Positions 6,255-42,896 of a stretch of 43,056 nucleotides of DNA are shown in pieces; positions within the stretch are counted from its first letter, which is position 1; every line of letters begins with the position of its first letter. A model generated the notes under the pieces. It did no database searches. It worked only from the letters and a program-made list of their open reading frames with translations, and was not told the DNA's origin. Location: NCBI GenBank assembly GCA_038212575.1, contig JBBQUI010000001.1:1-43056 (forward strand), read 5' to 3'. A program made the translations under genes and the position numbers. The stretch comes from Flavobacteriales bacterium. GTDB taxonomy: Bacteria; Bacteroidota; Bacteroidia; Flavobacteriales; Flavobacteriaceae.

Positions 6255-7341
6255 TCATTTTTAATAATTTTTCAATTTCTTCAACTATATCTTTTGTGGC
6301 ATTTGGTTTCGCCAGTTTTTTAATATTTTCTGAAAGTGTCTTTTGTATTTCTTCGGAATTGATCAGTTCTGAAAATTGCTTTTCAAAGCTTGAATCCAAA
6401 TCGCTTTCTTTAATCAACAACGCCGCATTTTTTTCTGAAATTGCCATCGCGTTTTTGGTTTGGTGGTCTTCCGCCACATTGGGTGAAGGGATAAAAATTA
6501 CTGGTTTCCCCACCAAACACAATTCTGAAACCGATAGCGCGCCCGCTCTGGAGATAATAAAATTACTCGCAGCGTACGCCAAATCCATTCGGTTTAAAAA
6601 AGCATGTACCTGCACAGTTTCGGTTCCTTTGTTTTTATAGGTTTCTTCATAATACTTTCCGCATTGCCAAATGACTTGTAAATTGTTCTTTTCAAAAAAT
6701 GACAATGATTTTTCAATCAATTGGTTGATTCTTCGTGCACCCAAACTTCCGCCCAAAACTAACAGGGTTTTCTTCTCTTTTTTCAAATTGAAGAAAGCCA
6801 TTGCCTCTTCTTTTTTTGAAGAAATTTCCAGTAAATCCTGACGAACGGGATTGCCCGTCAGCTTTATTTTTTCGGAAGGAAAGAATTTTTCCATTCCTTC
6901 GTAAGCCACGCATATTTTTTGGACTTTACCACTCAACCACTTGTTTGTGATTCCGGCGTGGCTGTTTTGTTCTTGAATTAAACAAGGAATACCGCGCAAT
7001 GCGGCCATTCGCAGTAACGGAGCGCTTGCATAACCGCCGGTTCCTATTGCTACATCGGGTTTAAATTTTCGGAGTATTTTTTGGGATTTCCGAAGACTTG
7101 AAACGAGTTTCAACGGAAAAGCCAAATTCTGAAGTGATAAACTTCTTTGCAATCCAGAAATCCAAAGACCTTTGATTTTATAACCTGCTTGCGGTACTTT
7201 TTCCATCTCCATTCTATCTTTTGCGCCTACAAACAAAAATTCAGCATCGGGGAAACGGATTTTTAACTCGTTCGCAATGGCAACCGCCGGGTAAATATGA
7301 CCTCCGGTTCCCCCGCCTGATATGATGAATTTTGGTTTCAA
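6247..7341 (-). CDS. murG: Lipid II GlcNAc transferase MurG
   Basis: [34 protein letters not shown]; TTG start. Confidence 0.98.
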
Positions 7342-7369
7342 ATCTTGATTTTTGTTTTATTCATGAACA

Positions 7370-7419
7370 TCCCCTTTGCCCTCCCGAAGCAAGTTCGAAA
7401 CAAGTTCTACGAAGGGGGA
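7370..7419. repeat. REP-like nested palindrome
   Basis: Outer TCCCCTTTG...CGAAGGGGGA with inner CCGAAGCAAGTTCGAAAC. Confidence 0.55.
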
Positions 7420-7454
7420 ATTGATTCTACTTCTATTTTAATTCTTAACTTCAA

Positions 7455-7520
7455 TTTCGTATTTCGTATATCGTATTTCGTACTTCGTACTTCGTATTTC
7501 GTCTTCGTACTTCGTATTTC
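7455..7520. repeat. Heptamer array (TTCGTAT/TTCGTAC) directly after the ftsW stop
   Basis: atttcgtatttcgtatatcgtatttcgtacttcgtacttcgtatttc... Confidence 0.9.
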
Positions 7521-8710
7521 TAAATCGCTTCGCTTAAAATATCCAATGGGTTTTCCTCTTTTTCTTCTTTTGCAACTACTTCTCTTTTGGCACTTACGCT
7601 TAAAACCATTCCCAATGCCAAACACGTCATCCAAATGGAGGTTCCTCCACTACTTATCAATGGTAAATTTTGTCCTGTTACGGGGAATAATTCCACGGCA
7701 ACTGCCATATTAATCATTGCCCGAAAAACAATGGGCAAACCAACGCCAATGACGAGCAGTTTTCCAAAAATGGAAGTCGATTTGTGAGCTACCACTACAA
7801 TTCTGAAAAGCAGAAACAGGTAAAGCACCATTAAAAAAAGACCGCCAATGAGACCAAATTCCTCTACAATAATTGCATAAATAAAATCTGAAGAAGATTG
7901 TGGCAAAAAGTTTTTTTGAACACTTTTGCCCGGCCCCACACCCGTAACACCACCTGATGCAATTGCTATTTTTGCTTTTTCTATTTGATAATCTGCTTCA
8001 GTGTCTTTATTATCACTGAAATTTTCAACCCTGCTCATCCAAGTATCAACTCGGTTCGGGAATACATCTGGAAAAGCTTTTGCTGAAATCACAAAAAGAG
8101 TTAGGAAAATTAAGCCGGCACCCAGAATAATTCCTAAATATTTTAAAGGATAGCCCCCAATAAAAACAAGCATCACGATCATAACAAAAAAGATTGCTGT
8201 CGTGGAAAAGTTGGCCGGAAGGATTAAGGCTAGTACTATAAATACTGGAACCCAAAGCGGCAACAATGTTTCTTTGAAAGTAACTGTTTTGTCCTTTATC
8301 CGCGATAAATAGCGCGCAACATAAGTCATCAAAACCACACCTGCCAAGGTTGAAGTCTGAAATGTAACCCCAACGAATGGCACCCGAATCCACCGGCTGG
8401 CGTTGGAGCCTTCAATGGTTGTGCCTTCGGCCATCGTTATAATTAATAGCAATACAACTACGGGAATCGCAATAATAGACAAGCCCCGGAAATAGTGATA
8501 CGGAATTTTGTGAACGCCGTACAAAATGGCAAAACCTAATACCAAATGTGCAAAATGCTTAAACAGATACGGCAGTGTACTTCCATCGCCGTACAAATAT
8601 GCAAGATTACTGCTCGCGCTATAAACCGGCAAAAAAGAGAATAGCGCCAAAAGGCCCACTACTCCCCAAATTGCCCTATCGCCCTGTATGTATTGAAAAA
8701 TGTTTTTCAC
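7520..8710 (-). CDS. ftsW: SEDS peptidoglycan polymerase FtsW
   Basis: Multi-TM; ASRWI, FLPQSSSDFIYAIIVEEFG, LPLISSGGTS; dcw position. Confidence 0.96.
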   Translation of the reverse strand: MKNIFQYIQGDRAIWGVVGLLALFSFLPVYSASSNLAYLYGDGSTLPYLFKHFAHLVLGFAILYGVHKIPYHYFRGLSIIAIPVVVLLLIITMAEGTTIEGSNASRWIRVPFVGVTFQTSTLAGVVLMTYVARYLSRIKDKTVTFKETLLPLWVPVFIVLALILPANFSTTAIFFVMIVMLVFIGGYPLKYLGIILGAGLIFLTLFVISAKAFPDVFPNRVDTWMSRVENFSDNKDTEADYQIEKAKIAIASGGVTGVGPGKSVQKNFLPQSSSDFIYAIIVEEFGLIGGLFLMVLYLFLLFRIVVVAHKSTSIFGKLLVIGVGLPIVFRAMINMAVAVELFPVTGQNLPLISSGGTSIWMTCLALGMVLSVSAKREVVAKEEKEENPLDILSEAI

Positions 8711-8717
8711 TGAAAAA

Positions 8718-8803
8718 GTTTCTGGTTTCTGGTTTCTAGTTTCTGGTTTCTAAAATTTCGTATTTCCGATTTCGTATTTCGTATTTCGTATTTCGTATTT
8801 CAC
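8718..8803. repeat. Two adjacent heptamer arrays (TTTCTGG/TTTCTAG and TTTCGTA) at the murD-ftsW junction
   Basis: gtttctggtttctggtttctagtttctggtttc followed by atttcgtatttccgatttcgtatttcgtatttcgtatttcg. Confidence 0.9.
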
Positions 8804-8805
8804 AT

Positions 8806-10200
8806 TTATAAATTTCTAACAGCATCCTTAAACTGTCTGCCGCGGTCTTCGTAGTTTTCAAATAAATCAAAACTCGCGCAGGCCGGGGAAAGGAGAACGG
8901 TGTTATTCCTTTCAGCCAATTTGTATGCAACTTGCACTGCCATTGCCATAGAATCTGTCTCAATTATAGTGTCAACAACGTTTCCGAAGGCATTAATAAT
9001 TTTTTCATTATCCACTCCCAAACAGATTATCGCTTTTACTTTTTCGTTTACTAAAGGCAAAAGTTCGCTGTAATCGTTTCCTTTGTCCACCCCGCCTAAA
9101 ATCCAAACGGTTGGGTTTTCCATACTGTCCAACGCAAAATAAGTGGCGTTCACATTCGTGGCTTTGGAATCGTTGATGTACATTACATTATTGATTTTCA
9201 ACACTTTTTCAAGTCTGTGTTCAACACCCTGAAATCCTTCCAAACTCTCACGAATTGTTTGCTTTCTAATTCTCAATAAAGTGGCTACCGTTGAAGCGGC
9301 CATTGCGTTTTTAACATTGTGTTCTCCTTGGATTCCTATTGTTGCTATTGGCATAGTAAATTGATTGTTATCTATTGTTATTATTATTTCGTTGTTTCTT
9401 TTGAATGCTCCCTGATTCAGTTCTTTTTTAGTTGAAAAAGGAAGCGGTTGCGATTTTATAGGGTTTTGCGAAAGCCATTTAATTATTTCAACATCATCTG
9501 CATCATAAATGAAATAATCCTGCGACGTTTGGTTCATCGTTATCCGAAATTTTGAAGCGATATAATTTTCATATTTATAATCATATCTGTCCAAATGGTC
9601 CGGACTCAAATTGGTCAAAACCGCGATGTGCGGCGCAAAGGTTTCAATGCCGTCAAGCTGAAAACTACTGAGCTCGAGCACGTAATTCTCATACTTTTCT
9701 CCTCCCTTCGCGGAAGCTTCGGAAGAGGACTCGGAAACCTGTTCCGCGAAACTCTTCCCGATGTTTCCACCCAACGCCACATTCAATCCACCGTTTTTCA
9801 GCAATTCGTAAGTCAGACTTGCGGTGGTGGTTTTTCCGTTGCTTCCGGTGATTCCTACGATTGTCGCCTTTGTGAATTTCGCAGCAAACTCAATTTCAGA
9901 AATTACCTTCACTCCTTTTTCGCGCAATTTTTTAATGATTGGCGCTTTATCGGGAATTCCCGGACTTTTCATCACTAAATCTGCTGAAAGGATTTTTTCT
10001 TCGGAATGGCCTCCCTCTTCCCATTCAATTCCATTATTTATAAGAACTTGTTTGTAATTCTCTTTTATTTTTCCAAAGTCTGAAACAAACACCTCAAACC
10101 CTTTCTTTTTTCCTAAAATGGCTGTTCCAACTCCGCTTTCGCCTCCACCCAGAATTACGATTTTCGATTTACGATTGACGATTTTAGATTGTTTGCTCAT
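8806..10200 (-). CDS. murD: UDP-MurNAc-L-Ala--D-Glu ligase
   Basis: ILGGGESG, GITGSNGKTTT, LELSSFQL, NDSKATN, LSPACASFD. Confidence 0.98.
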   Translation of the reverse strand: MSKQSKIVNRKSKIVILGGGESGVGTAILGKKKGFEVFVSDFGKIKENYKQVLINNGIEWEEGGHSEEKILSADLVMKSPGIPDKAPIIKKLREKGVKVISEIEFAAKFTKATIVGITGSNGKTTTASLTYELLKNGGLNVALGGNIGKSFAEQVSESSSEASAKGGEKYENYVLELSSFQLDGIETFAPHIAVLTNLSPDHLDRYDYKYENYIASKFRITMNQTSQDYFIYDADDVEIIKWLSQNPIKSQPLPFSTKKELNQGAFKRNNEIIITIDNNQFTMPIATIGIQGEHNVKNAMAASTVATLLRIRKQTIRESLEGFQGVEHRLEKVLKINNVMYINDSKATNVNATYFALDSMENPTVWILGGVDKGNDYSELLPLVNEKVKAIICLGVDNEKIINAFGNVVDTIIETDSMAMAVQVAYKLAERNNTVLLSPACASFDLFENYEDRGRQFKDAVRNL

Positions 10201-10590
10201 TTTGAATTTAATCTTTTACGAACTGTATTAATCGATGCAATCGTTATTGATAGTAATTCATCAGCCTCTTTGTGCAATCGGTCAATTTCCATGTGATGCA
10301 TTTCTGACATTTCTTTTAATATTTCCAAGAAATACATACTCTCATCTGCTTCCTCTTCAACAATTTTCAACTTATTTATGAAATCCTTATCCGATTTTCC
10401 TCTGCTCGCCGCTCTGTAATTTGCACCCACCGAACTCGAACATCTTATTAATTGATTGCAGTAAGCATTATATTCTCGTGAAATGGGAAATCTCATACAT
10501 AACTTTCCACAATCAACTGCAAAGCGCAACATTCTTCTTTTAATCTCTTCCTTCATAAATCGTAAATCTAAAATCGTATATCTTAAATCC
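10156..10590. repeat. Inverted heptamer arrays bracketing the four-helix-bundle gene
   Basis: TACGATTTTCGATTTACGATT (10156-10176) is the reverse complement of AATCGTAAATCTAAAATCGTA (10558-10578) with one mismatch. Confidence 0.88.
10197..10556 (-). CDS. Four helix bundle protein (23S rRNA intervening-sequence protein family, PF05635/TIGR02436-like)
   Basis: QLIRCSSSVGANYRAASRGKSDKDFINKLKIVEEEADESMYFLEIL matches the family signature; ATGA overlap with murD. Confidence 0.93.
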   Translation of the reverse strand: MKEEIKRRMLRFAVDCGKLCMRFPISREYNAYCNQLIRCSSSVGANYRAASRGKSDKDFINKLKIVEEEADESMYFLEILKEMSEMHHMEIDRLHKEADELLSITIASINTVRKRLNSK

Positions 10591-10593
10591 TTC

Positions 10594-11826
10594 TTATCTA
10601 ATCTTTAGTGTTACAATCGTAATAATCGCTAAAAAAATACCCACGATCCAAAACCGCGTTACAATTTTACTTTCGTGGAAACCCTTTATTTGGTAGTGAT
10701 GATGTAGTGGTGCCATTCTAAAAATTCGCCTACCATCTCCAAATCGTTTCTTTGTGAATTTAAACCAGCCTACTTGCATAACCACTGAAAGGTTTTCCAT
10801 CAAAAATATTCCGCAGAGAATGGGTATCAACAATTCTTTTCGAACCGCAATGGCGATTACTGCTATAATTCCCCCAATAGTTAAACTGCCCGTATCGCCC
10901 ATAAAAACTTGTGCGGGATAGGTATTGTACCATAAAAACCCGATGAGCGCTCCCACAAATGCGGTGATGAAAATGGTCATTTCACCAGTGTTTGGGATAT
11001 ACATAATATTGAGATAGTCAGAAAAAATAACGTTGCCCGAAACCCATGCAAAAAGTGCGAGCGTGATTCCAATAATTGCAGAAGTTCCCGCTGCAAGCCC
11101 ATCTATTCCATCGGTGAGATTGGCGCCGTTTGAGACCGCGGTGATAATAAAAATTACAATCGGGATGAAAATCAGCCACACATAACTTTGATAATTTTCC
11201 CCTGCCCAACTGATCAGTTCGGAATAATTAAACTCGTTTTCCTTTACAAAAGGAATAGTGGTTAGCATGGCTTTGTCCTTCACATAAAACTTATTGGTGG
11301 GACCTTTTGCTATTATTTCAGTTTCTGCTCCAGGATCCGTAATGCTTCGCTGAACAATGATGTCTGGGTGAAAATACATTGTTGCACCAACGAACAAGCC
11401 CAACCCAATCTGTCCAATTACCTTGAATTTCCCAGGCAGACCCTGTTTGTCATTTTTAAATTTTTTGATGTAGTCGTCAATAAAGCCGATGGCTCCCATC
11501 CAAAGAGTGGTTACAATAAGCAGGATTACATAAATATTTTCAAGCTTTGCGAAAAGTAGAACGGGAATTAGCGTGGCGAGAATTATTATGATACCACCCA
11601 TTGTTGGAGTTCCAGCTTTTTCGTTTTGACCATCCAAACCAAGGTCGCGGATAGATTCACCAACTTGTTTTTTTCTTAAGTAATTGATGATTTTTTTACC
11701 GTAAACCGAAGCTATAAAAAGTGAAAGAATAACTGCCAATGCCGCGCGAAACGTAATAAATTCAAACAAACCTGCTCCAGGCATGTCGTACGTTTTCTCC
11801 AAATAGTCGAATAGGTAATATAGCAT
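10594..11826 (-). CDS. mraY: Phospho-N-acetylmuramoyl-pentapeptide transferase
   Basis: [41 protein letters not shown]. Confidence 0.99.
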
Positions 11827-11829
11827 TTG

Positions 11830-13293
11830 CTATTTGTTTAGCGTTATTAAAAGTTGGTTCACTATTTTAAAATCATCAAAATCGGAGCGTTCACCATTAA
11901 TTTCCTGATAGGTTTCGTGACCTTTTCCAGCAATTAAAATGATGTCGTTTTCCTTTGCCATTTGGCAGGCTGCCTTAATAGCCTCCTTTCTATTGGTTAT
12001 TGAAATTGTCTTTTTATAATGTTCGGCAGGCACGCCTGTTTCAATTTGTTCTATAATTTTTTCGGGGTTTTCGGTTCGTGGATTATCGCTGGTAAAAACC
12101 ACTTTTGTGCTCAACGAAGCAGCGATGTTTCCCATCACCGGTCGTTTCTGCGCATCGCGATCTCCGCCACAGCCTACAACTGTAATCACTTCTTCATTAC
12201 CAGTGCGGATACTGTTTATGGTTTCCAAAACATTTTTCAATGCATCGGGTGTATGTGCATAATCAACTATTGCAGTGATTTTCTTTTCCGAAATCAAATA
12301 TTGAAACCGTCCGCCCACACTTTCCAGTGTGCTCATAATTTGAAGGATCTCAAGTTCCTTCAATCCTAAAAGTTGGGCTGTTCCATAGATTGCCAACAAA
12401 TTATAAGCATTGAAACCACCAATCAATTTCACCCACAACTCTTGGTTGTTTATTTTCAAAAGTTGTCCCGTAAATTGGCTTTCCAGAACCTGTGCTTTAA
12501 AATCAGCATAGGTTTTTAGCGCGTAGGTTTGTTTTTTCGCTTTTGTGTTTTGAAGCATCACCACCCCGTTTTTGTCATCCACATTTACCAATGCGAAAGC
12601 AGTTTTTGGTAATTCATCAAAAAAGGATTTTTTCACATCACGGTATTCAGCGAAATCTTTGTGATAATCCAAATGGTCGTGAGAAAGATTGGTGAAAACA
12701 CCACCAACAAAGTGAAGGGCTTCGGTACGTTTTTGATGGATTCCGTGGGAACTCACTTCCATAAAACAATATTCCACGCCCGCGTCTACCATTTCACGCA
12801 GATACATATTAATGGTCAATGAATCTGGGGTTGTATGCGTGGCTTTAAATTCAGTATTGCCAACCATTATTTTTACCGTGGAGAGTAAGCCCGCTTCCAA
12901 ACCAGCTTTTTTGAAAAGTTGATATAATAAAGAAGAAACTGTGGTTTTTCCATTTGTTCCGGTAATTCCTACGAGCTTTAATTCTTCCGAAGGATTTCCG
13001 TAGTAATTGGCAGCCATAATAGCCAAAGCTTTGTGCGAATCTGAAACTTGCACATATGTTATTCCATTGACTATATTTTCAGGCAAGGTTTCGCAAATAA
13101 TAGCCAGGGCGCCTTGGTCAGCCGCTTTTTTTATGAATTGATGTCCATCGGAAATGGTTCCTTTAATTGCAATAAAAACATCGTTTAATGAAACTTTTCG
13201 GGAATCAAATTCAAGATTGTTTATGGCCACGGAAGTACTGCCAACGACGCTTTCGATGGTAACTTTGTACAATATGTCCTTTAACAATATCAC
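11830..13293 (-). CDS. murE: UDP-MurNAc-tripeptide synthetase (meso-DAP ligase)
   Basis: GITGTNGKTT, MEVSSHG, DHLDYH, VDYAHTPDA, DNPR (DAP-specific motif), AGKGHETYQ. Confidence 0.98.
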   Translation of the reverse strand: MILLKDILYKVTIESVVGSTSVAINNLEFDSRKVSLNDVFIAIKGTISDGHQFIKKAADQGALAIICETLPENIVNGITYVQVSDSHKALAIMAANYYGNPSEELKLVGITGTNGKTTVSSLLYQLFKKAGLEAGLLSTVKIMVGNTEFKATHTTPDSLTINMYLREMVDAGVEYCFMEVSSHGIHQKRTEALHFVGGVFTNLSHDHLDYHKDFAEYRDVKKSFFDELPKTAFALVNVDDKNGVVMLQNTKAKKQTYALKTYADFKAQVLESQFTGQLLKINNQELWVKLIGGFNAYNLLAIYGTAQLLGLKELEILQIMSTLESVGGRFQYLISEKKITAIVDYAHTPDALKNVLETINSIRTGNEEVITVVGCGGDRDAQKRPVMGNIAASLSTKVVFTSDNPRTENPEKIIEQIETGVPAEHYKKTISITNRKEAIKAACQMAKENDIILIAGKGHETYQEINGERSDFDDFKIVNQLLITLNK

Positions 13294-15292: not shown

Positions 15293-15390
15293 TTCAGTAC
15301 GCAGTATTCAGTGGTCAGTAATCAGTTATTTGGTTTCTCTTTTCTTTATTCTTTATTCTTTATTCTTTTTTCTTTTTTCTTTTTTCTCTA
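15293..15390. repeat. Two heptamer arrays (CAGTnnn and TTTATTC/TTTTTTC) at the ftsL-ftsI junction
   Basis: cagtacg cagtatt cagtggt cagtaat cagttat, then ctttatt x3 and ctttttt x3. Confidence 0.85.
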
Positions 15391-15708
15391 CTCTTTCTTT
15401 TCAACAATGCGAATTCTCTTTGGTGGCGTTCCCGACGGTAGCAACCCGCGACTTTCCATTGCAGCTATTATTTTGCTTTCCATTCTTGCTTGCATCAAAA
15501 GCATCCGAACGTCCACATATTCACTTTTTAGCTCTTTTACCTCGGCATTAAGCTTTGAAATTTTATGCACTTTTTTATCAGCGGTGTGCGAACTGCCAAT
15601 CATTACCAAAGCCAAGACAGAAAGAAAAATGATGAAGCGCCAGTTTTTCAGCGCATCGTCACTCACCAAAAATTTTCCTTTTATTATGTTGTAAAAACCG
15701 TCTTTCAT
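15388..15708 (-). CDS. ftsL: FtsL-like cell division protein
   Basis: Small protein with one TM followed by a coiled coil, between rsmH and ftsI. Confidence 0.85.
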   Translation of the reverse strand: MKDGFYNIIKGKFLVSDDALKNWRFIIFLSVLALVMIGSSHTADKKVHKISKLNAEVKELKSEYVDVRMLLMQARMESKIIAAMESRGLLPSGTPPKRIRIVEKKE

Positions 15709-15713
15709 TTTTT

Positions 15714-15836
15714 GTGATTCGGGATTCGTTAATTCGGGATTCGGGATTCGGGATTTGGGATTTGGGATTTGGGATTAGTCATCCAGCATCCAACACCCCG
15801 CATCTTTTCTCTTTATTCTTTTATCTCTATTCTTTT
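15714..15836. repeat. Heptamer arrays (GGGATTC/GGGATTT; CTTTATT-like) at the rsmH-ftsL junction
   Basis: ttcgggattcgggattcgggatttgggatttgggatttgggatt at about 15734-15777; second pyrimidine-rich array at about 15805-15836. Confidence 0.85.
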
Positions 15837-18170: not shown

Positions 18171-18255
18171 AGGTTTCAGGTTTCAGGTTTCAGGTTTCAG
18201 GTTTCAGGTTTTTAAAAAAAAACATTTTTCCCATATAACTCAATACTCAATACTT
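18171..18255. repeat. Heptamer arrays (AGGTTTC)x5+ and ACTCAAT repeats between hydrolase and engB
   Basis: aggtttcaggtttcaggtttcaggtttcaggtttcaggttt starts immediately after the stop codon; actcaatactcaatact precedes the next start. Confidence 0.9.
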
Positions 18256-18260
18256 AAAAA

Positions 18261-18872
18261 ATGCAAATTAAATCTGCGGAATTTGTGATGAGCAACAGCG
18301 ATGTTGCCAAATGCCCAAAAGACCGTTTGCCGGAATACGCTTTTATTGGCCGAAGCAACGTGGGAAAATCTTCGCTCATCAATATGTTGATGTTGCGCAA
18401 AAACTTGGCAAAAACCTCGGGAAGACCTGGGAAGACACAGCTTATCAATCATTTTCTAATAAACAAAAACTGGTATTTGGTAGATTTGCCGGGTTACGGT
18501 TACGCCCGCGTTTCAAAAAGCAGCAAGAAAGTATTTCAGAAATTTATTACCAATTATTTTGAAAAACGGGAGCAAATGGTGCTCGCCTTTGTTTTGGTGG
18601 ACTGTCGTCACGAACCTCAGCCCATCGATATGGAATTTATGCAATGGATGGGCGAAAGCGGGATTCCTTTCAACATAATTTTCACAAAAGCTGATAAACT
18701 GAAACCAAAAGCATTGGAAAGAAACATTAAGGCCTATAGTGAAAAAATGCTGGAAACTTGGGAGGAAATGCCGCCTTATTTTATTACTTCAGCGAGTGAT
18801 TCTTCAGGAAGGGATGAAGTTTTAAATTATATTAGCGAACTAAACTCTTCAATTCCGAATTCTGAATTCTGA
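18261..18872 (+). CDS. engB: Ribosome biogenesis GTPase YihA/YsxC (EngB)
   Basis: [26 protein letters not shown]. Confidence 0.97.
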
Positions 18873-18880
18873 ATTCAGAA

Positions 18881-19219
18881 TTATTCCTTTTTCAGCTCTA
18901 ACTTTTCTGCAAAATAATCACAGAAATCGCGCATTGTGGCGCTCATTTTATCATCATTTGTAGCGCGTTGAAACGTATCTGCCATGGCGCTCAAGGTTTG
19001 GTGAAAAAAGATTTTCATTTCGTCCACGGGCATGTCTTTGGCCCAAAGATCTATTCTAAGCGATTCCTTTTTTTTACTGTCCCAAACAGAAAGCATCACC
19101 GCCTTGGTTTCTTCGTTTGAAACACCACCGTCTTCCGCAGTCCAACGAATGGTTTCGGGAATTTTGTTTTCGTCAAGACCTACATTTAGTTTTATTTCAG
19201 AAGTATGTTTTATTGCCAT
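18881..19219 (-). CDS. gldC: Gliding motility protein GldC
   Basis: LDENKIPE, WTAEDGG, LRIDLW, DMPVDEMKIFFHQ; downstream of gldB. Confidence 0.93.
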   Translation of the reverse strand: MAIKHTSEIKLNVGLDENKIPETIRWTAEDGGVSNEETKAVMLSVWDSKKKESLRIDLWAKDMPVDEMKIFFHQTLSAMADTFQRATNDDKMSATMRDFCDYFAEKLELKKE

Positions 19220-25910: not shown

Positions 25911-26016
25911 TAATGAATAATGTATAATGCGTAATGAATAATGTGAAATGAATAATTATTGATTTATGGTACTGGCTGAAGTTTTGTTATTAATTGCTCA
26001 TTACTAATTACTAATC
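25911..26016. repeat. Heptamer arrays TAATGnn and TTACTAA-type in roughly opposite orientation
   Basis: taatgaa taatgta taatgcg taatgaa taatgtg aaatgaa (25911-25952); ttgctca ttactaa ttactaa (to about 26014). Confidence 0.75.
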
Positions 26017-27483: not shown

Positions 27484-27600
27484 TCCTTCGCTGAAAAAGC
27501 TTCGGAGGACGAGTGTTTCAGGTTGCAGGTTTCAGGTTTCAAGTTGCAGGTTGCAGGTTGAAAAAACAAATTCACAAACTCACAGATTCACAAATTCACT
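27484..27600. repeat. REP-like palindrome followed by a 7-mer (GGTTTCA/GGTTGCA) array and an 8-mer (AAATTCAC) array
   Basis: tccttcgctgaaaaagcttcggagga; ggttgca ggtttca ggtttca agttgca ggttgca; aaattcac aaactcac agattcac aaattcac. Confidence 0.8.
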
Positions 27601-42798: not shown

Positions 42799-42896
42799 TT
42801 AGATTATTGGATTGTTAGATTCTTAGATTATTGGATTGTTAGATTATTGGATTGTTAGATTATTGGATTCTTAGATTGTTGGATTGTTGGATTATT
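42799..42896. repeat. 8-mer tandem array (AGATTATT/GGATTGTT/AGATTCTT), about 12 units, abutting the dtd start
   Basis: ttagattattggattgttagattcttagattattggattgttagattattggattgtt... Confidence 0.92.

Follow-up and report, generated by a model that had tools for sequence, protein, structure and literature searches.

A small four-helix-bundle gene of the PF05635 family, enclosed by inverted arrays of heptamers, lies between mraY and murD in the dcw cluster, on the minus strand of the 43,056-nt stretch of Flavobacteriales DNA analysed here (hereafter the window). This inverted-array layout is confirmed, and the position of the gene, which was proposed in the initial annotation, is borne out by matches to PF05635 and TIGR02436 and by the domains of its neighbours. 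The explanation that we prefer, and to which we give about an even chance, is that the locus holds a selfish, homing-like cassette, predicted to recognise its own arms, exchanged at the mraY-murD junction independently of the flanking genes, and related to the intervening sequences (IVSs) of 23S rRNA that bear an open reading frame (ORF).

Anatomy of the mraY-murD locus

The features of the locus, with the method or domains that define each, are:

10594..11826, minus strand: mraY, the upstream host gene (PF00953, PF10555)
10557..10589, minus strand: left arm, about 4.7 heptamers with sense consensus T-n-(C/A)-G-A-T-T, abutting the ATG of the cassette gene (TRF)
10197..10556, minus strand: cassette gene, four-helix bundle, 119 aa, PF05635/TIGR02436 (profile searches)
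10155..10191, minus strand: right arm, inverted heptamer array of sense AAATCGT type (TRF; inverted repeats I1-I5)
8806..10200, minus strand: murD, the downstream host gene, with an arm-derived N-terminal extension (Mur ligase and MurD_N domains)
8755..8801, minus strand: orphan array of left-arm type (sense ACGAAAT) at the murD/ftsW junction, without gene or inverted partner (TRF)
7454..7520, minus strand: orphan array of left-arm type (sense ACGAAAT/ACGAAGT) at the ftsW/murG junction (TRF)

The stop codon of mraY (10594-10596) stands 4 nt ahead of the left arm, where TRF reports period 7 and 4.9 copies (10556-10589); the right array (10155-10191) has the same period, with 4.3 copies and one overlapping row. 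The cassette gene runs directly into murD, its stop codon and the murD start overlapping as ATGA (10197-10200), and the right arm is itself murD coding sequence, read as MurD residues 4-16. Of the inverted heptamer arrays that had been described on both sides of the gene, both are present, but the downstream one is not intergenic, as it encodes part of MurD. The MurD N-terminus here comprises a 16-residue stretch rich in K, I, V, N, R and S, versus 7 residues in empty alleles, which lack the cassette. Elsewhere in the same gene (464 aa), a short in-frame insertion is seen at about 9700-9740 relative to murD of relatives.

The ftsW/murG junction, which in the window holds only an orphan array, is occupied in other Flavobacteriaceae by a complete cassette whose protein belongs to the same clade as the window's. 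Further intergenic arrays of 7- or 8-base units occur in the window at 1-54, 8718-8751, 15293-15396, 15716-15836, 18171-18254, 18851-18882, 25911-26015, 27515-27599 and 42799-42896, and that at 25911-26015 is an inverted pair around a 30-nt loop, without a gene. An Rfam scan of window positions 7000-12000 returned zero matches, and a promoter and terminator scan, poorly suited to the host phylum, gave results at chance level.

The cassette protein

Both profiles are matched over their cut-offs (PF05635, E 3e-15 and 56.7 bits against 33.8; TIGR02436, E 6e-22 and 78.1 bits against 24), which upholds the original assignment to the IVS-protein family. The structure model (pLDDT 97) has four helices, and its best Foldseek matches are 2RLD (BT_0352), also matched in sequence at E 7e-12, and 2GSC (Xcc0516), each with five chains; 2GSC is described as a homopentamer (PMC4990558). 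By likeness to these structures the cassette protein is predicted to form a homopentameric ring, and the fit of about five units per arm to five subunits is only suggestive. The model also matches Avd, alone and in reverse-transcriptase complexes of diversity-generating retroelements (DGRs; 4DWL, 8UB7), at TM about 0.76-0.82, in keeping with the shared fold that had been proposed. Sequence identity to Avd is only 14-16%, and the bAvd profile PF22296 does not match the cassette protein at E 0.001; two paralogs elsewhere in the genome do match that profile, one of them over the cut-off. No catalytic domain was found in the cassette protein by Pfam, NCBIfam or fold search. The protein is under purifying selection, with dN/dS of 0.03-0.10 in the 13 pairs, of 15, for which scoring was possible; on the murD side, four dN values for the window locus (L001) were spoiled by the indel in its murD.

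The junction in relatives

Among named relatives, the cassette protein is closest to proteins of Aequorivita (Flavobacteriaceae), at 88-89% identity. We surveyed the junction in the best 30 murD loci, comprising the window's own and those of 29 of 36 genomes from the genus. Filled and empty junctions, as anticipated in the initial annotation, are both found: six loci are filled, two hold an internally deleted ORF, one retains the right arm only, 17 share one and the same clean 19-nt empty junction, and four have other spacers. Decayed copies amount to two of the eight cassette-bearing mraY/murD loci in this sample. Among 57 genus genomes searched, 28 gave no match to the cassette protein query at E 1e-15, and the 11 matches of at least 80% lie, every one, at mraY/murD. 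In a tree of mraY plus murD, monophyly of the filled and decayed alleles is rejected (AU p 4e-8), and the 30 loci call for at least 7 changes. A filled locus (L005) and an empty one (L008), which do not differ in the final 38 nt of mraY, are sisters (95/96). For 23 mraY/murD cassettes across Bacteroidota, a one-clade hypothesis is not rejected (p 0.15).

The insert replaces the first codons of murD. Because the murD start codons of the empty junction are missing from filled alleles, deletion of a filled allele could not restore an empty one, and the alleles must therefore be exchanged. No target-site duplication is present at the filled and empty junctions compared, and sliding-window identity between filled and empty alleles gave no clear co-conversion tract, murD past about +420 being spoiled by the indel in the window's copy. 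The ATGA overlap recurs, as scored by script, in 9 of 11 filled alleles.

Because gene trees of the cassette, mraY and murD (12 loci) were mostly unresolved, we turned to correlations of synonymous distances, using Mantel tests over 8-10 related genomes, from which L041 (truncated), L035 (short murD) and L034 (frameshifted murD) were left out of some comparisons. Across the eight genomes with intact flanks, mraY and murD correlate at rho 0.85 (0.80 and 0.69 with 351-nt length controls), versus 0.15 for the cassette with mraY and 0.17 for the cassette with murD; the 10-genome version gives -0.006 for the cassette and 0.59 for the control. These distances show a cassette history decoupled from those of mraY and murD; lateral exchange is seen at this junction, and no flank was detected travelling along. 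As synonymous divergence among cassette alleles is deep (dS 0.5-2.4), such exchange would be slow or old. With alleles this patchy and a history apart from its flanks, the gene is not a fixed, vertically inherited resident of the site, and the proposal of a transposase-free cassette at operon junctions stands, the PF05635 gene being its sole cargo. The frameshift that removed L034 (genome G076) falls after about 50 codons of murD and is probably an assembly error.

At the next two junctions, murD/ftsW and ftsW/murG, orphan arrays differ from species to species and are found in empty alleles as well, with no apparent link to the filled state of mraY/murD (2 loci unparsed, 1 truncated). The spacers there are fluid across L001-L030, ranging from a tight stop/start overlap to arrays of 2-8 units, and several loci (L008, L013, L018, L019, L027) carry a different short palindrome at one or other of them.

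A family of cassettes with clade-specific units

Relatives gathered for the window protein and four paralogs gave 183 usable loci, or 178 after deduplication, in five protein clades. Inverted arms (score at least 28) accompany 150 of the 178 cassettes, as against 4.5% of cross-clade pairs. The repeat unit and its polarity go with the protein clade from site to site, and in the window's clade also from phylum to phylum: TACGA is present in the left arm at 20 of its 26 sites, and the unit cores of the other clades are CAGT, CAAAT, AGGTT/TTCAA and AAGA/TAGA. Left arms paired with right arms from a different site score 25.9 within a clade versus 19.1 with another clade. This coupling of clade and unit might reflect shared descent and not recognition, as arms and gene travel together.

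The sites occupied include mraY/murD, murE/mraY, ftsW/murG, hisH/hisA, hisA/hisF and hisF/hisIE, together with two suf junctions, fadB/fadA, fadA/fadE and ffh/folD (three site-partner genes being named from sequence likeness only). Of 10 sites considered in a set of 51 (4 loci dropped), 7 have their closest other-site relative within their own operon, against 1.25 under the null (p 4.5e-4). The corresponding figures for a set of 35 Flavobacteriaceae-type sites are 7 of 11, against 2.5 (p 0.013). About three independent groups (dcw, his and fad) supply this signal of local hopping, which is absent from the suf pair. Two clades share the ffh/folD junction, and some junctions attract several; hot spots may therefore explain part of this local bias. 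In L049, L089, L097 and L044 the left arm has been absorbed into the C-terminus of the upstream gene (e.g. HisA, HisH), mirroring the way in which MurD is extended in the window.

Family genes and arrays across the genome

The genome contains 17 PF05635 matches, all with protein-coding genes as neighbours, and all 17 are co-oriented with the neighbours that were scored (both sides for 15, one side for 2), versus 1588 of 2254 junctions genome-wide. Inverted 7/8-mer arrays had been predicted at these other family genes and are indeed the rule: with wider flanks, arms exceed the 95th percentile of background at 16 of the 17, so the contrary expectation, that other members would lack them, does not hold genome-wide. 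When the flanks are limited to 90 nt, the arm pairing of 14 of the 17 comes among the best 3 out of 33. Repeat units differ among the 17 cassettes and are 7 or 8 bases long, and at least 3 of the genes are decayed by internal stops or a frameshift. Flanking by direct repeats, considered for cassettes on contigs C48 and C25, was rejected, since inverted partners exist further off.

Tandem repeats of period 7 outnumber those of any other period in the genome (371 rows). Arrays of the 7/8-mer type number 532, of which 418 lack an inverted partner; a partner within 700 nt is found for 114, compared with 126 of 2660 controls, and 76 of these 114 are gene-less hairpins (loop of at most 150 nt), three with the unit of the window cassette. 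Hairpins or orphan arms with this unit lie at C17:16206, C38:9765, C136:1872 and C127:3672-4330, the last flanking a gene that resembles NTP pyrophosphatase (named from sequence likeness).

A comparable design occurs around GxxExxY genes (TIGR04256), of which the genome has five:

C14:12805-13155, C113:7444-7791, C8:27028-27378, C35:3778-4122 and C8:14856-15200: GxxExxY genes

Inverted arms above the 95th-percentile threshold flank four of the five, with longer repeat units and nuclease-like cargo, and the two that were checked belong to the PD-(D/E)XK family PF13366. On C35 the GxxExxY gene adjoins a four-helix-bundle cassette in a sulfate-activation cluster. At C76:4737-5060, a small gene reading like a GIY-YIG nuclease has REP-like palindromic repeats on both sides.

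Pairing of the arms

The reported complementarity of 21-nt arm segments at 20 of 21 positions was reproduced (10558-10578 with 10156-10176), and the inverted-repeat listing shows the arms pairing in several registers. The duplex energy of the arms is -37.2 kcal/mol, versus a mean of -20.0 for 32 non-cognate pairs built with arms of other cassettes in the same genome, none of which (0/32) is as good. Their inverted alignment score of 40 compares with a 99th percentile of 34 over 2401 ORFs of the genome, 12 of which reach at least 40, including six PF05635 genes. A terminal stem appears in both the minimum free energy (MFE) and centroid folds, so the transcript can indeed form a stem with the ORF in its loop. 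The fold of the whole cassette is unexceptional (z -1.46 and -1.73; 8/100 and 4/100 shuffles equally good).

The tests run for selection on the stem as RNA were mostly negative. The sense strand shows no G-U excess over 150 cassettes (192 G-U versus 224 A-C mismatches; 89 versus 67 with one cassette per site, p 0.09). Shuffling the order of units costs own pairs a relative score of 0.107, and foreign pairs of the same clade 0.108; for the window locus it raises the pairing score. Own minus cross-allele arm score at mraY/murD is -0.5 (positive in 12 of 24), and duplex energies likewise give cognate arms no advantage over cross-allele ones. Pooled over all sites, own arms beat those of other alleles by +4.1 (99 of 154, rows not independent), and in some cassettes (L097, L153, L161) the arms match almost perfectly, variant units included and in register, so that arms are at times copied from each other or kept paired. 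It is the consensus of the unit that is conserved in these arms, which is what binding sites would be expected to show.

Mechanism and alternative explanations

As a homing-like element, the cassette would borrow the promoter of the operon, and would be tolerated by beginning at the upstream stop codon and passing ribosomes to murD via the ATGA overlap. A pentameric ring would bind the arrays, one unit per subunit, and bring both ends together, leaving cutting, copying or joining to be done in trans by host recombination and repair, possibly aided by nucleases such as those of the GxxExxY genes, which share the cassette design. The RNA stem would then be a by-product of two inverted binding arrays, and not an excision signal at mraY/murD. 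Several observations weigh against this account: the deep synonymous divergence of the alleles, the poor resolution of cassette and host trees, the frequency of decayed copies, the small advantage of own arms when all sites are pooled, and a search of the 90.6% complete genome that gave no reverse transcriptase. A broader proposal, which we hold only tentatively and think rather doubtful, is that PF05635 genes and their inverted arrays make up a large unrecognised class of enzyme-free homing elements, in which the pentamer would read its own 7-8-base code and clamp the ends, and host or partner enzymes would copy the cassette to the same junction in other species and to neighbouring junctions of the operon.

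The initial annotation had described an mRNA intervening-sequence-like cassette; on that reading the paired arms would be cut by RNase III, the cassette removed and the operon mRNA split. A 20-bp stem in both folds, an RNase III gene in the genome, sense orientation at 17 of 17 family genes and the near-perfect arms of L097, L153 and L161 all fit such an intervening sequence, as does the Coxiella IVS described with tandem heptamers before an S23p ORF and cut by RNase III (PMC4990558). At mraY/murD, however, the murD start codon lies in the loop (with the ATGA overlap in 9 of 11 filled alleles), so cleavage of the stem would strip an essential gene of its start, and neither the G-U counts, the unit-order shuffle nor the own minus cross-allele score of -0.5 speaks for selection on pairing beyond the unit consensus. 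The claim of excision is thus not supported; to judge from these comparisons excision is unlikely at this site, and we consider the reading unlikely overall. At sites with two intergenic arms, the homing-like and IVS readings could both apply. Quite unlikely, to our mind, is a domesticated regulator, maintained by benefit to the host, whose protein, by binding arrays in mRNA, sets the level of translation from the downstream gene or from the many orphan arrays elsewhere in the genome. Purifying selection, sites in essential operons and the 532 arrays of the 7/8-mer type, several with the window cassette's unit and two at the next dcw junctions, are what such a role might leave, and translational regulation by intergenic heptamer repeats has been proposed (MacGregor, 2015; PMC4679880). 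Against it, 17 of 30 relatives have no cassette at the junction, 28 of 57 genus genomes have no match at E 1e-15, decay is frequent, orphan arrays at the next junctions persist in empty alleles, and one clade serves unrelated operons.

It is distinctly improbable that the cassette is a passive by-product, with ordinary unstable simple repeats around a harmless small gene that drifts by homologous recombination in the flanks. The prevalence of period 7 (371 rows), the 418 of 532 arrays without a partner, the freely varying copy number of arrays at neighbouring junctions and the lack of a catalytic gene in the cassette would suit that account, which nonetheless leaves aside the conserved protein, the inverted arms at 150 of 178 cassettes versus 4.5% of cross-clade pairs, and the agreement of unit and polarity with clade. 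Recombination between species about 15-20% diverged would, moreover, need a co-transferred flank, and none was seen. Least probable, and very much so, is a retro-element whose ring loads the cassette RNA onto a reverse transcriptase (RT) supplied in trans, the cDNA being inserted at nearby junctions. Such a route would suit the fixed sense orientation, local hops within one transcript and the fold match to Avd, including its DGR RT complexes (4DWL, 8UB7), but no RT (PF00078) was matched in the 90.6% complete genome or in the cassette neighbourhood, and the 14-16% identity to Avd and the missing bAvd Pfam match likewise count against it, as does the fact that no template or variable repeat was seen.

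Relation to known systems

The S23p IVS of Coxiella burnetii is reported to have a 28-bp stem and tandem heptamers before its ORF, and to be cut by RNase III (Warrier et al., 2016; PMC4990558), and ORF-bearing IVSs of Leptospira are cited in the same article (Ralph and McClelland, 1993, 1994). As far as these are described there, the cassette resembles them in its protein family, its length of about 440 nt, its terminal inverted repeats and its tandem heptamers before the ORF, as well as in sense orientation within the host transcript, patchy distribution, horizontal transfer into one site and decay of the ORF in some lineages. Unlike them, it lies between protein-coding genes, and its kind occupies dozens of junctions, in several protein clades each with its own unit, with one arm translated in MurD. 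It thus has the stem-forming terminal inverted repeats around a sense S23p ORF and the patchy lateral transfer into one site that typify 23S rRNA IVSs, but, being outside an rRNA gene, it is a relative and not a member of that group. As to excision by RNase III without religation, a further mark of those IVSs, the genome has the RNase III gene, but the position of the murD start in the loop argues against it. Avd has an accessory role in nucleic-acid handling, without known catalysis, and the cassette protein is like it in its four-helix-bundle fold (TM about 0.76-0.82) and unlike the Avd of DGRs in having no RT, template repeat or variable repeat beside its gene. Homology between PF05635 and Avd has been noted (PMC10053308).

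Long heptamer repeats have been described in Bacteroidetes, cyanobacteria and Beggiatoaceae, and reported also in Aequorivita (MacGregor, 2015; PMC4679880). Like those described, the arrays analysed here have 7-base units, lie strand-oriented between genes beside start and stop codons, and vary between close relatives; the text of that article (PMC4679880) names S1, Csp and Csr as candidate binders, with 0 occurrences of helix-bundle proteins. What sets the present arrays apart is that they come paired in inverted orientation, with a gene between them from whose clade the unit can be predicted.

An insertion sequence or MITE was rejected, as the PF05635 gene is the sole cargo and there is neither a transposase nor a target-site duplication. 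The cassette shares with homing introns, free-standing homing endonuclease genes (HEGs) and REP/REPIN-type hairpins with a linked enzyme a lateral spread into conserved essential loci; as with these, a given site exists in filled and empty form, the element is gained, decays and is lost in turn, and derivatives without a gene occur. Unlike them, its cargo has no nuclease, recombinase or RT domain, there is no splicing, and no co-conversion tract or target duplication was seen. It accordingly lacks the endonuclease or RT of its own that marks a homing element in the strict sense. Our literature search, with incomplete coverage of subscription journals, returned no account of such cassettes at operon junctions outside rRNA.

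Conclusions

PF05635, a widespread family for which structures have been solved, has to our knowledge no established function, and we know of no accepted origin for the long heptamer repeats of bacteria. The present locus ties the two together, and adds a decoupled history at a single junction, a bias toward neighbouring junctions, and a translated arm that speaks against excision. It also offers a direct test, in the form of a 119-aa protein, a defined 7-base unit, wrong-unit paralogs from the same genome as matched controls, and natural filled and empty alleles at a single junction. If binding of the arms and ORF-dependent spread are true, then the cassette would be a mobile element without an enzyme of its own, and its relatives would offer, ready-made in nature, small proteins that differ in the short repeats they recognise. 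If the class of enzyme-free homing elements proposed more tentatively above is true, then it would have left the orphan arrays and gene-less hairpins behind as traces, the long-standing excess of heptamers in bacterial genomes would be accounted for, and the Avd-fold family would gain a function outside retroelements. Translated arms, for their part, account for odd N-terminal extensions rich in K, I, V, N, R and S on essential proteins such as MurD.
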